A stretch of 64,000 nt of DNA. Origin: Escherichia coli (lineage in GTDB: Bacteria > Pseudomonadota > Gammaproteobacteria > Enterobacterales > Enterobacteriaceae). The stretch lies in NCBI RefSeq assembly GCF_045037415.1, contig NZ_CP173438.1; one strand, written 5' to 3'. Shown here piece after piece: positions 51,101-57,100 of this stretch. Position 1 is the stretch's first letter, and the number at the start of each line of letters is the position of its first letter. The position numbers are program-made.

Positions 51101-54100
51101 ACAAAAACTTAGCCGTAAATTGCAGGATGACTGGATAACGCTCGAGAAAGGGCAATATCCGTTAACGATGAAAGTTTCAGAAATAAACAGTAAAAAAGTC
51201 GCGATTTTGATGAAAATTGACGATATCAATCAGGCTAATGAACGCTGGAAAAAAGATACCGAACAATTGCGGCGCAATGGAGTGATTAAGTAACTCATGT
51301 TAAGTACCTTTGCCGGATAATATAAAAAGTTATCCGGCAAATTATTTTTTACATTAGCCCTAGTAGCTGTGGAATGAACAAGGATATTTGCGGGATGTAA
51401 GTGATCATCATCAACGTGATTAACAATGCGGCATAAAATGGCAGCAATGGTTTGATCAAATGTTGAATCTTCACACCTGAAATAGAACAACCAACAAATA
51501 GCGCACTACCCACCGGCGGTGTTAACAGCCCAATACAAAGGTTGGCCACCATCATAATACCGAAATGTACCGGATCCATTCCCAGCTCTTGTGCAATCGG
51601 CAAGAAGATTGGTGTGAAGATTAGTACAGCCGGTGTCATGTCCATAAAGATGCCGACAATTAATAAGACGATATTAATCAGCAGCAATATGACCAGTGGG
51701 TTATCAGAAATCCCCATCAACGCGTCGCTGATCATATAAGGAATATCAGCATTGGTCATTGCCCAGGACATGCCCACGGAAAAACCGATCAACAGTAATA
51801 CAATCGAAGTGGTAACAACCGATTCCAGAATCAGTTTGGGTAAATCGCGCCATTTTACTTCCCGGTAAATCAGCACCGAGAGAATAAATGTGTAGACAAC
51901 GGCAATTGCTGACGCTTCAGTTGCGGTAAAAATGCCGCCCAGAATGCCGCCCATTACAATGAACACCAGAAGCAAACTTGGTAAGGCATCCAGAAACGCT
52001 TTACATGCCTGAGCAAAGGTTGCTCTTTCTGAAAGTGGGTAGCCACGGCGTTTAGCAATAATGCCGCAGACTATCATTACCGCGAGACCCATTAAGATCC
52101 CTGGCAAATATCCCGCCATAAATAGCGATGCTACAGAAACGCCGCCAGCTGTCAGGGAAAACACAATTAACACGTTTGAGGGCGGTATCAGTAATCCAGT
52201 AATACAAGATGAGACGTTTACAGCGGTAGAAAATGCCGGATCATAACCTTCTTTGGTCTGAATGGGATTCAGTGTGCCACCAACGGCAGCAGCTGCCGCA
52301 ACAGCTGAACCAGAAATGGAACCAAACATCATATTCGCCAGGACGTTCACATGACCAAGCGAACCAGGAACGCGGCCAACCATTACCTGGGCGAGGTTAA
52401 TCAAACGTATCGCAATACCGCCGCTGTTCATCAGCGTTCCGGCAAAGATGAAAAAGGGGATTGCCAATAGGGCAAAGTTATCCAGTCCATTAGCCAGTCG
52501 CTGCGAAACAGTGATTGCCGCGATATCCCAGGGAAACATCAACAGCATTGAAGCTACAGTGGCAATACCGATTGAGAACGAAATGGGCACACCAATAAAG
52601 ACCAGCACAAAAAAACAGCCAAACAGTGTAAGCGCGATATAACTATCCATTAACTGGCCTCCTGCGCAGGTTGTTTCAGTTGTTGAATGCTTTGATTAAT
52701 AAAACACAAGGCATAAAACATCATCACCAATCCACTTAATGGCAGAATGATATATACGTATCCCATCGGTATTTGCATCGCGGCAGATACCTGTGATGTT
52801 GCCAGTGTTTTATCAATTAATTTCAGGCCACCAGTCACAATAACCGAACCGGCAAAACCTAAAATAAGAACGTTAATGACTATACTAAGAAGTAATTGCT
52901 TGCGCTTATTCAGGGCGAGAGCAAATAAATCGATAGAGAGATGTCTCTGCGCGCCGACGGTATATGCAGCACCTAATAATCCTACCCAGATCATCAAAAA
53001 GCGTGCCAGCTCATCGGTTAATGTACTTGGCTGGTTAAGTACGTAGCGGCTAAATACTTGCCAGACTACGCATACAACCAGAGCAAGCATTACGGCGACA
53101 GAAAACGCGGCAATGACGCGGTCTACCGCAAGTTTCAGGCGGTTAAATATCATTGTAAGCATCCTGGAAAATCAGGGCCAGAGACTGGCCCGAAATATTA
53201 TTGAGCAGCGTTGTCGAATTTCTCTAACAAAGCAGCTTGTTTTGGATCTTTTTTGAAGTCGTCAAACAGAGGTTGAACTGCGGCACGGAATGGGGCTTTA
53301 TCAACCTTAACGATTTCACCACCCATAGCTTTCGCCTGAGCACGTGTGTCAGCGTCAATTTTTTCCCACAATTTTTGTTGATCAGCTTCGGATTTCTTCG
53401 CCGCTGTTTCGAGGATTTGTTGCTGTTCTGGGGTTAATTTATTCCATGTTTTGGTGGAGATAACCAAAAAGTCAGGAATTGAGGCATGTTCATCTTCAGA
53501 AAAGACTTTGGCAATTTCGATATGTCTAGTCTGCACCCAGGAAGGCACGTTATTTTCTGCGCCATCTACTACACCTTGCTGCATCGCAGTATAAACTTCG
53601 CCAAATGAAATTGGAGTGGGTGAGCCACCCATCAGTTCAATCATTTTGATGGTGGTCGGGCTTGGCTGAACACGAATTTTCAGCCCTTTAAGATCTTCTG
53701 GCTTAGTAATCGGTTTTTTCGCATAGAAACTGCGTGTACCCGCTACATAAGCTGATAAAGCAAAAAAGCCTTTATCTTTTGTTGAATCCATAATTTCTTC
53801 ACCAACTTCACCAAAAACCACTTTGTTGAAGTGCGCCTGATCTTTAAATAAGAACGGCAAATTATAGATAGCATAAATATTATCAAAAGACTCCAGATCA
53901 CTGGCGGAACCTTTGGTCATATCCAGTGCACCATTTTGCAACAACTCCATAGTTTCTCGCGCATTACCCATCTGGCTGCTGGGATAAATACGGATCACCA
54001 TATTACCTTTTGACAGCTGTTTTACCTCTTTCGCCAGCTCTTCAAAACTCTGATGTACAACATGACTTCTTTCCAGGTTGTGTGCTAACTTTAACGTCAC

Positions 54101-57100
54101 TTTTTCTGCGGCGTTTACGCCAGTGCTAACCAGAGCCAGCAAGGATGCGCAGACTAATGAGCGGGTAAATGACCTCATTTTCATAAAAAAACTCCCTGTT
54201 GAAGAATGGAAATTGGTTGATATCTAATTGTGCTTATCAGTGCTTTGTGCGACAAATTGGTTAACCTGTCTGACAACTTGTCTATGTTTATCACAACTTG
54301 AAATAAAGTCAGAAATTAAATATTAATTTTGTGCGCCAGGTTGTACATATTTATAATCAATAAATGATGAGTAAATATTCACTAAATATATATAATAAAT
54401 ATCGTCGATATTTATTCAGTAAGAAATATATTTTTGCCGAAGTTAATTAACGGGGGGGTTAAAAGAAGTGATTAATGCGCCCGCAGGCGCATTAATGATT
54501 ACTCAGCGAGGAATAATTCAAGAAGTGAGTTTAAGAATAATTTACCATGCTCGGTTATCTGCCAGTAATCCGCACATTCTGTGAGATAACCTTGAGCGAT
54601 GGCCTCGTCTAACTGAGAGCGAATAACTTCTTCAGAAAGGCCAGTATATTGGATAAACTCCACGCGCGGCGCGGCTTCCAGCAGACGGAAGCGATTCATA
54701 AAGAACTCAAACGGTTTATCTGCAGCTTCGACATCACGCTGGCTTTCCAGATATCTTCCCTGCATAAAACCACGCGGATGACGCGTTTTGGTGGTACGCA
54801 GAATGCGCCCATCCGGGAAGGTCACTTTGCCGTGCGCGCCGCAGCCAATACCGATGTAGTCGCCAAATCGCCAGTAGTTGAGATTGTGCTGGCACTGATA
54901 ACCGGGTTTGGCGTAAGCGGATGTTTCATACTGCTGATAGCCCGCTGCGGTTAATAACTGATGCCCCTGTTCGAAAATATCCCACAGCGCGTCATCGTCC
55001 GGCAGTACAGGAGGGCGCGAGCCAAACAGCGTATTAGGTTCGATGGTCAGTTGATACCAGGAAAGATGTGGCGGATTCAGTTCAATAGCCTGGCGCAGAT
55101 CGCCTAGCGCCTCTTCCAGTGATTGATCCGGCAGCCCATGCATCAAATCAAGGTTAAAACTACGTAACCCTAAACCGCTCGCCAGCTTTGCCGCTCGTTT
55201 CGCTTCTTGCGGGCCATGAATACGCCCGAGTCGTTTCAGCTTTTCTTCGCTAAAACTCTGCACACCAATAGAGATGCGGTTCACACCAGCACGCTGATAA
55301 TCGACAAAGCGATCCGCTTCTACCGTGCCTGGGTTCGCTTCCATAGTAATTTCTGCATCCGCTGCCAGCGGCAAACGCGCACGCACGCCGTCCAGCAGCG
55401 TTTGCATCGCCGGGCCGGAAAGCAGGCTCGGCGTACCACCGCCAATAAAGATTGTCTGCACTTCACGGCCCTGAGCGTAAGCCACATCGTTGTCCAGATC
55501 GTTAAGCAGATGCTGAACATAATCGTCGTGCGGCACTTCTCCTTTCAACGCGTGAGAGTTGAAATCGCAGTACGGGCATTTCTGCACGCACCACGGGATG
55601 TGAATGTAGAGACTCAGCGGCGGTAATTTAACCATTACGTAAAGCGTCCAGCAGCAGTTTCAATGCCTGACCACGGTGGGAAATGGCGCTCTTTTCTTCG
55701 CGGGTCAGTTCGGCAGCGGTTTTCCCTTCGGAAGGAACAAAGAAGATTGGATCATAACCAAAGCCACCAGTGCCCGCTGGTTCACGAGTAATCACGCCCG
55801 GCCAGCTACCGTGGCACACCAGCGGAGTGGGATCTTCCGCGTGACGCAGATATACCAGCACGCAGTGGAAACGCGCCTGACGTTGGTCGTCCGGTACGTC
55901 TTTCATTGTTTCCAGCAGTTTTTGCAGATTCTTTTGATCGGTCGCGTCTTCACCGGAATAACGCGCGGAGTAAATCCCCGGTGCACCGCCAAGTACATCT
56001 ACCGCCAGACCGGAGTCGTCGGCAATTGCCGGTAAACCGGTCACTTTTGCCGCATGGCGCGCTTTCAGAATCGCGTTTTCGATAAAGGTCAGGCCAGTTT
56101 CTTCAGCGGAATCTACACCGAGGTCTGTTTGGGCCACGATATCAAGACCGAAGTCGCTAAGCAGCGACGCCAGCTCACGCACTTTACCGGCATTGCCGGT
56201 TGCGAGGACAACTTTTTGCATAGGATACCTAATTAATTAACGCCGCGATTTCTGGCGGGATTTGTTGCGGATTAATGATTTTAATTTGTTTGTGGCGGCC
56301 AAGTTCGCCTTTTTCAATCACCACCTGGCTTTTGGCAACCCGGAATTGCTTACCGAGAAACTTCACCAGATGGCTGTTGGCCTGGCCGTCAACCGGCGGC
56401 GCGGTAATGGCGACTTTTACCTCGTCGCCATGTAAACCGACAATAGAATCACGGCTGGCTTTCGGCTGAATATAGAGCCGTAAAACCAGACCGCCATCAT
56501 TCACTGTTACGGCACTCATAACGCCATCCACAGCCCCGGCAGCAGCATATTTCCGGTCGCCTGCAAGACTTCTGCGACACCCATATTGATGACATACAGC
56601 AGCAGAACGAGGATCATCGGCGAGAAATCAATCCCACCCATTGCCGGTAGCAGGCGGCGAATCGGGCGCAGCAGCGGATCGGCCAGCTGAATCAGCACGT
56701 ATTCAATCGGGCTACGCCCCTGGCTTACCCAGCTCATAATCGCCATCACCAGCAGGACCCAGAAAATCAGCAGGCCGATGGTTTTCAGCAGAATCAGTAA
56801 ACCGGCAATCCAGATGATTGGCAGGAAGGTCACCACTTTAAACAGCACGATGGCTTTGATGAAACTGAGAATGTACGCAACCAGCAGTGAGGCGCTGTCA
56901 ATGGGCCCCATTGCCGGAATAACGCGGCGCAGTGGCCCGATAATTGGCTGCGTTACCTTCACTACAAACTGTGAGAAGGGGTTGTAAAAATCACAATGAG
57001 CCCACTGCATCCAGATGCGTAATAACAGCACCATGGTATACAGCTCAATGACCGTTGAAAGCAGGAAAGTCAACGTATTCATGGCGTTCCTTTAATTCCT

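Follow-up and report, generated by a model that had tools for sequence, protein, structure and literature searches.

Several described systems resemble the locus analysed here, a dctPQM operon for a transporter of the TRAP type (tripartite ATP-independent periplasmic) lying between yggM and hemW in a 64,000-nt stretch of Escherichia coli NZ_CP173438.1 (GCF_045037415.1; hereafter the window). In Salmonella Typhimurium LT2, the three-gene DctP-type TRAP operon STM3169-STM3171 has a binding protein with a dissociation constant of 0.17-0.25 µM for D-glucuronate, and a role as ExuT's high-affinity partner has been proposed for the system (Herman et al. 2020, PMC7660916). GaaPQM of Agrobacterium tumefaciens is a TRAP system assigned to galacturonate uptake (Zhao & Binns 2016, as cited in PMC5812351). 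The sole TRAP system that E. coli K-12 possesses, YiaMNO, handles 2,3-diketo-L-gulonate, and ExuT is a hexuronate:H+ symporter of the major facilitator superfamily (MFS). [quoted passage not shown] Our reading of the E. coli locus, to which we give a probability of about 0.65, is that it encodes an ancestral hexuronate TRAP importer under ExuR-type regulation, which a minority of E. coli has kept and K-12 has lost.

Three intact minus-strand open reading frames (ORFs), dctP, dctQ and dctM, fill positions 51349-54184 of the window in the order P-Q-M, with the dctM start overlapping the dctQ stop (ATGA). DctP and DctM score above the cutoffs of TIGR00787 (175 bits) and TIGR00786 (268 bits), respectively (Table 1), DctP also matches NF037995 with 255 bits, and its N-terminus has a signal-like segment. 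PF03480 is carried by DctP homologues and PF04290 (DctQ) by the 80%-identical DctQ orthologue of Salmonella, while DctM orthologues in other genera share 90-96% of their amino acids. Strain Z22-2 holds identical genes, which RefSeq labels TRAP substrate-binding protein, small permease and large permease; the RefSeq start of dctQ, at 53153, is 9 nt later than that of the ORF and gives 167 instead of 170 residues. The locus is thus a dctPQM-type TRAP operon with separate small (Q) and large (M) membrane subunits, as an earlier examination of this DNA made without database searches (the sequence-only reading) had described it. YiaMNO has the same architecture but is distant: the YiaN equivalog (cutoff 800) gives DctM 297 bits and the YiaM equivalog (cutoff 260) gives DctQ 38 bits, which rules out that dctPQM is the YiaMNO orthologue. 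A literature search found no published work on the present E. coli locus, and for the TRAP genes mentioned for BEN2908 and soil isolates no tie to it was established.

The nine best sequence matches of DctP in the PDB were all EFI TRAP binding proteins (E 1e-59 to 1e-67), and EFI TRAP binding proteins were also the best fold matches of its AlphaFold model (mean predicted local distance difference test score, 84.5), with template-modelling (TM) scores of 0.78-0.84. The EFI hexuronate binders named above, with TM scores of 0.78-0.80, provide the best matches by both sequence and fold and share with DctP an ENNxPS motif and Arg residues. Apart from Apre_1383, Bpro_3107 and Bamb_6123, the top PDB matches are probably hexuronate complexes. 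Apre_1383 (4N91) binds D-glucuronate, Bpro_3107 (4MHF) binds both glucuronate and galacturonate, and Bamb_6123 (4N15) served as a modelling template in the same study (PMC7660916). In the PDB sequence search, the C4-dicarboxylate DctP proteins (9dsy, 9dtl) and SiaP scored far lower.

The ligand-contact residues described for STM3169 and Apre_1383 are, in STM3169 numbering, Arg150, Arg170, Asn210, Asn35, Gln36, Glu74 and Asp237 (PMC7660916). With the numbering offset by one, Arg150, Arg170, Asn210, Asn35 and Asp237 have their equivalents in R151, R171, N211, N36 and D238 of DctP. R171 does not vary within the family and lines up with the Arg in the KIRVQ/KVRVQ motif of the PDB hexuronate binders, and a carboxylate-binding role has been assigned to the Arg at this position (PMC7660916). 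A check of binding-protein specificity motifs, which the sequence-only reading had proposed, gave a divided answer: the Arg/Arg/Asn triad is present, but Gln36 and Glu74 are replaced by Leu37 and Ala75. Leu37 is also found in the uxa-linked Aeromonas orthologues described below, where position 75 is Pro. Together with the Aeromonas and Pantoea sp. IMH proteins (59-60% identity), the enterobacterial DctP proteins form a subfamily of their own with the shared signature motifs AHNLE, QMG[NSG][AP]RET, YVAGTRSF and S[IV]PDFL, whereas the PDB proteins read LGSEKDT, Y[DE]SGARS and PE[VI]L at signature positions.

Like the present operon, STM3169-STM3171 is a stand-alone three-gene operon of an enteric bacterium, has no catabolic neighbours and encodes the Arg/Arg/Asn triad. 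It lies, however, at a different chromosomal locus, and Salmonella has a separate hemW-adjacent gene that is 90% identical to the present dctP product and distinct from STM3169. From the locus and the residue differences listed above, the STM3169 system is evidently a paralogue of the present operon. GaaPQM is comparable through its assigned galacturonate uptake, not through sequence comparison, and belongs to another, phylum-level lineage with other regulation.

The gene context of distant orthologues also bears on the substrate. The operon of Aeromonas rivuli, A. molluscorum and Pantoea sp. IMH, with 59-60% identity, stands in the arrangement uxaA-uxaB-uxaC <-> dctPQM-regulator. This regulator shares 66-74% identity with E. 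coli ExuR versus 46-50% with UxuR and is, by sequence similarity, an ExuR orthologue; the same operator motif occurs upstream of uxaC, dctP and exuR in these clusters. The E. coli order is uxaCA <-> exuT-exuR. Because dctPQM lies between uxaC and exuR in Aeromonas and Pantoea sp. IMH, it occupies the exuT slot there, a classic case of one transporter type replacing another. In Mangrovibacter, a heparinase/alginate-lyase-like gene is located upstream of the operon, and the neighbours in Buttiauxella, Edwardsiella and Enterobacillus offered nothing informative.

Regulatory sites were sought by phylogenetic footprinting, in which the regions upstream of dctP from ~35 loci were aligned. The conserved layout consists of a TGTGA box, an operator AAAG(A/T)TGTCnGACAAC and, 21 bp further on, a second operator ATGTCATACAG, so that two TTGT-N3-ACAA sites 21 bp apart precede dctP across genera. 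The promoter layout was deduced from the Klebsiella and Kluyvera orthologues; in Klebsiella, placed by hand, the TGTGA box lies at about -41.5, the first operator at about -21 and the second at about +1 of a GATAAT promoter. We built a palindromised matrix from the operators of other genera, with E. coli excluded, and ran it over four K-12 loci. Its best matches were TAAAGATGTCAGACAACTTCC upstream of uxaB (20.1) and TAAAGTTGTATGACAAGTTAT upstream of exuT (18.6), where scores of at least 18 are expected by chance 0.04 times per 100 kb. Weaker matches were found upstream of exuR and uxaC, the dgoR promoter scored 12.3, and the uxuAB-uxuR locus gave nothing above 7.3. In the whole window the same matrix ranked the candidate operator O1 first (18.5), and a reverse matrix made from the K-12 hexuronate promoters also placed this site first, with 18.9 versus 14.5 for the next. 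A 13-mer of the E. coli dctP promoter, GGTTAACCAATTT, occurs as a single copy in the window and is shared with the K-12 gntP-uxuA spacer, to which UxuR binds (PMC5934670). Repression by ExuR is the most likely prediction from these operator similarities, and UxuR possibly represses dctPQM as well.

These lines of evidence suggest how the system may work. Secreted DctP would capture a sugar acid in the periplasm, with R171 holding the carboxylate together with R151 and N211, and would pass the ligand to the DctQ-DctM membrane unit, where the gradient of a coupling ion would drive import. D-galacturonate and/or D-glucuronate are the most likely substrates on present sequence evidence. Once imported, the hexuronate would enter the pathways of UxaC/UxaBA and UxuBA; of 5,426 complete E. 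coli genomes, 5,418 contain uxaCA-exuT-exuR. The transporter may thus act as a high-affinity scavenger beside the MFS carrier ExuT, with which it is predicted to share substrates and repressor, although ExuT belongs to an unrelated protein family, lacks a binding protein and would be expected to show the lower affinity. ExuR, possibly also UxuR, would repress the operon at tandem operators that are spaced by 21 bp and overlap the core promoter, and a putative CRP half-site lies just upstream of them.

Several observations weigh against the hexuronate importer under ExuR control. The identity of DctP to hexuronate binders with known structures is no more than 34-39%, and two of the STM3169 contacts, Gln36 and Glu74, are not kept. 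No catabolic genes adjoin the operon in E. coli, Citrobacter or Klebsiella. The second E. coli site, O2, has diverged and scores poorly with the matrix from other genera, and a consensus scan upstream of dctP found no convincing sigma-70 -10/-35 pair. The reverse matrix is partly circular, its K-12 sites having been picked with the TRAP-derived matrix, and the strong uxaB match overlaps the dgcF stop, 220 bp upstream of the uxaB start. As a further point, G+C in dctPQM is 43-46% overall and 0.39-0.48 at third codon positions (GC3), below the flanking genes.

Because Leu37 and Ala75 differ from the contacts in STM3169 and Apre_1383, the ligand could be another uronate or sugar acid. A TRAP transporter for C4-dicarboxylates, which the gene name dct would suggest, for an aldonate (such as galactonate or gulonate) or for other uronates, such as unsaturated or polymer-derived ones, would fit these pocket positions, the distance of ~37% identity to known hexuronate binders and the lyase-like neighbour in Mangrovibacter; moreover, the TTGT-N3-ACAA core is generic for FadR-type GntR regulators, as the dgoR score illustrates. 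We nevertheless consider such a substrate unlikely, since the closest solved relatives fall in the hexuronate cluster (4N91 and 4MHF, per PMC7660916) with 9dsy, 9dtl and SiaP far behind, scores are higher for the exuT and uxaB sites than for the dgo site, a 13-mer is held in common with uxuA, and the 60%-identical orthologues sit in uxaABC-exuR clusters while keeping the same signature residues. The sequence-only reading had held that the substrate could not be inferred from sequence; this stands for the exact ligand but is too pessimistic for its class, since related structures, gene context and operators agree on hexuronates, with ExuR as the regulator.

The operon is complete in 1,458-1,460 of the 5,426 E. 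coli genomes (27%), the flanks being universal, and in ~30 further genomes it is partial or interrupted by insertion sequence (IS) IS1. Carriers and non-carriers are given here by named strain rather than by phylogroup. Those that carry it in our sample include an ST648 strain, MS 69-1, O26/O103/O111 enterohaemorrhagic E. coli (EHEC) and an O6:H16 enterotoxigenic E. coli, and it is absent from O157:H7 EC4115 and from clone D i2, the sole B2 genome examined. In MG1655 and XL1-Blue, yggM and hemW are separated by 154 bp and no TRAP genes lie between them. The statement in the sequence-only reading that the two genes are neighbours in K-12 was therefore correct, and comparison with K-12 and other lineages, which it had called for, showed the operon missing from K-12, EC4115 and clone D i2; the three genes whose presence in K-12 at this position would have spoken against it are not found there in MG1655.

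How the empty sites are built speaks to the direction of change. Homology between the window and K-12 stops at the stop codons of yggM and hemW, and the empty sites are arrays of repetitive extragenic palindromic (REP) elements of 154 bp in K-12, 242 bp in O157 and 68 bp in B2 (positions 2595-2748, 1095-1336 and 1094-1161 of the compared extracts, respectively), with the hemW-proximal REP common to all three. When these spacers were compared with the TRAP region by blastn-short, only chance 8-10-mers were found and no TRAP remnants. In the window, a perfect palindrome follows hemW, folding at -19.2 kcal/mol (z = -4.6); because none of 200 shuffled sequences folds as well, it is beyond chance. 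We interpret it as the intrinsic terminator of the yggS-hemW transcription unit, a prediction with which its T-rich tail agrees. Its stem AATGCGCCTGCGGGCGCATT recurs 3' of hemW in Salmonella and Citrobacter, and other genera have different hairpins there. TRAP-negative E. coli have lost the hemW terminator together with the operon.

Orthologues were collected in a scan that took one genome per bacterial species. DctP orthologues with 80-93% identity were found in Citrobacter, Kluyvera, Klebsiella, Pseudocitrobacter, Phytobacter, Pluralibacter and others, where the operon lies directly downstream of rdgB-hemW, and hemW-dctPQM synteny extends over more than 25 species. Some Salmonella enterica have the exact order hemW-dctPQM-yggM-ansB. 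The operon has long been part of the hemW locus in Enterobacteriaceae. Cross-genus synteny, the shared hemW terminator and the REP-filled empty sites make it probable, with good confidence, that the operon is ancestral here and that the K-12 state is a loss. The two E. coli alleles compared below differ by a core-like number of synonymous substitutions per site (dS), which suggests that the operon is as old as the phylogroups. K-12 is therefore a reduced reference at this locus and shows a loss, not the baseline. As a separate observation, Salmonella enterica is apparently polymorphic for the operon, and no Salmonella genome surfaced in the one-genome-per-species scan.

The wording of the sequence-only reading implied that the operon had been inserted between two neighbours, and a recently acquired islet in some E. 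coli lineages, with K-12 in the original state, would account for the patchy distribution, for the low G+C and GC3 relative to the flanks and for a synonymous divergence from Salmonella, Citrobacter and Klebsiella somewhat above that of the flanking genes (73-81% nucleotide identity versus 79-83% in the flanks, with dS saturated). The insertion is nonetheless unsupported and we judge it improbable. The operon has the same hemW-adjacent position in Citrobacter, Klebsiella, Kluyvera, Pseudocitrobacter, Phytobacter and some Salmonella. In TRAP-positive E. coli the hemW terminator is orthologous to the one in Salmonella and Citrobacter; in TRAP-negative strains, REP elements take its place. No integrase, IS element, mobility gene or tRNA gene was found at the locus in the window, and the operon boundaries showed no target-site duplication or meaningful flanking direct repeats; the marks of a genomic island (mobility genes, tRNA or att sites, direct repeats, absence from relatives at the site) were thus not seen. 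Neither was a near-identical donor found outside Escherichia, the best match there having 93% amino acid and ~80% nucleotide identity, and the divergence between the two E. coli alleles is core-like. For the ancestral operon, low GC3 is the main residual oddity. One boundary repeat pair, AATGGAGTGATTAA and AAAGAAGTGATTAA, was considered; it cannot yield the K-12 junction and was taken as chance.

Between the window and the O103:H2 allele, dctPQM has a dS of 0.04-0.11 and a ratio of nonsynonymous to synonymous divergence (dN/dS) of 0.05-0.08, resembling the flanking genes, and only 2 of 146 positions differ in the dctP promoter. The low ratios indicate that purifying selection acts on the operon within E. 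coli. Since selection is purifying and the promoter almost invariant, we infer that the operon is expressed in the present strain. That it is instead a silent or decaying remnant is very improbable: its loss from 73% of genomes, the IS1 insertions and partial copies in some strains, a -10 region and O2 that have diverged from other genera with no good sigma-70 match, and an AT-rich upstream region that might attract H-NS would all suit such a remnant, but the full-length ORFs in 1,460 genomes, the purifying selection between divergent alleles and the nearly invariant promoter do not, and good -35 elements are typically missing from CRP-dependent promoters in any case. In the same comparison the dS of hemW was 0.229, 2-5 times that of neighbouring genes (0.04-0.14), which suggests a recombination tract at hemW.

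Hexuronates are recognised nutrients and signals in the gut. Galacturonate is sensed via ExuR, and hexuronates promote colonisation by EHEC and Citrobacter rodentium (PMC10990124); the glucuronate-binding TRAP paralogue of Salmonella has been linked to macrophage survival (PMC7660916). If dctPQM is a second, high-affinity route under ExuR control, its presence or absence would be a simple metabolic difference between E. coli lineages, with O26/O103/O111 EHEC and the ST648 strain on one side and O157, K-12 and the examined B2 strain on the other. Evenly poised, in our judgement, is the broader proposal of a polymorphic ExuR-controlled hexuronate scavenger in about a quarter of E. coli that alters competition for galacturonate and glucuronate in the gut, with DctP proteins of a separate subfamily whose pocket is modified (Leu37, Ala75/Pro75). 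The operon is interesting but is not a new kind of system; for annotation, genes labelled merely "TRAP transporter" gain a predicted substrate class and regulator.

Coordinates of the genes and of the candidate regulatory and terminator elements are collected in Table 1.

Table 1. Genes and candidate elements at the dctPQM locus, in window coordinates.
Feature	Position	Strand	Basis or remark
yggM (DUF1202), left flank	50286-51293	+	K-12 homology ends at yggM stop codon
Hairpin TTTGCCGGATAA-N9-TTATCCGGCAAA, then TTATTTTTT	51309-51341	+	Between convergent yggM and dctM; T-tail
dctM, TRAP large permease, 433 aa	51349-52650	-	TIGR00786, 474 bits
dctQ, TRAP small permease, 170 aa ORF	52650-53162	-	ORF; RefSeq annotation; weak YiaM-family match
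G+C-rich hairpin GGGCCAG-TCT-CTGGCCC, dctP-dctQ gap	53175-53191	-	Pattern scan
dctP, periplasmic substrate-binding protein, 328 aa	53198-54184	-	TIGR00787, 281 bits; PDB matches; residue comparison
ATATCAACCAATTTCC box, 24-39 nt upstream of ATG	54208-54223	-	Shares ACCAATTTCC with K-12 uxaC upstream site
O2 TTTGTCGCACAAA, TTGT-N3-ACAA palindrome 21 bp from O1	54244-54256	-	Position of conserved ATGTCATACAG
GGTTAACCAATTT 13-mer, candidate UxuR/ExuR box	54254-54266	-	Identical in K-12 gntP-uxuA regulatory spacer
O1 ACAAGTTGTCAGACAGGTTAA, candidate ExuR operator	54261-54281	-	Top window match with both matrices
Candidate CRP half-site: conserved TGTGA box upstream of O1	54280-54299	-	Phylogenetic footprint; presumed CRP role
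G7 homopolymer (C7 on coding strand)	54452-54458	+	Length and sequence strain-variable
26-bp perfect palindrome ATTAATGCGCCCGCAGGCGCATTAAT, then CACTTCTTTT	54471-54496	-	2 nt past hemW stop; T-rich tail
hemW, right flank	54499-55635	-	ORF and RefSeq annotation

The region between dctP and hemW (54185-54498, 314 bp) has a G+C content of 31%, and the AT-rich stretch of about 300 bp with a G7 tract and a perfect palindrome directly after hemW, reported in the sequence-only reading, was found at the positions given. The hairpin between yggM and dctM folds at -19.4 kcal/mol (z = -5.9) and is the predicted yggM terminator. In the dctP-dctQ gap, the G+C-rich hairpin may favour expression of the binding protein over that of the membrane subunits. 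The ATATCAACCAATTTCC box is suggestive only as a putative regulatory site. An Rfam scan of 50000-56000 returned nothing except one spurious long non-coding RNA match (E = 0.94).

Further operator-like sequences were seen. Inside dctP, at 54012-54032 (+153 from its start), the coding-strand sequence GAAAGAGGTAAAACAGCTGTC is kept from genus to genus, probably through coding constraint. The matrix from other genera gave moderate matches (12-15 bits) at window positions 24980, 12507, 47594 and 34341. Upstream of K-12 uxaB (extract positions 5900-5920 and 5695-5737), a TTGAAT...TATGAT promoter-like pair lies just downstream of the strongest site, and the uxaB ribosome-binding site is adjoined by two weaker ExuR-like sites 22 bp apart.

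The genome survey also turned up variants of the locus. In the O157 spacer, a unit of ~88 bp is duplicated. In E. coli A30, from a horse, two IS1A copies adjoin hemW (locus positions 4473-7228) and yghO/glcC replaces the yggM-ansB side; this junction is an IS1-mediated deletion or rearrangement. Among the genome matches, which include TUM10828, one genome holds an allele of 95.4% identity and matches in two places; truncated copies of the operon occur in a few E. coli genomes, and one match falls on a plasmid-typed record. Contigs binned as Collinsella sp., Bacillota bacterium and Alicyclobacillaceae carry a hemW-dctPQM segment 98-99% identical to that of E. coli, and these short contigs are almost certainly E. 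coli contamination of metagenome-assembled or other genome bins. At the position of the G7 tract, a homopolymer downstream of the hemW terminator for which no role is evident, strains differ: the coding strand reads C7 in the window, C7TC5 in O103:H2 and C5GCG in Escherichia sp. MOD1-EC7003.

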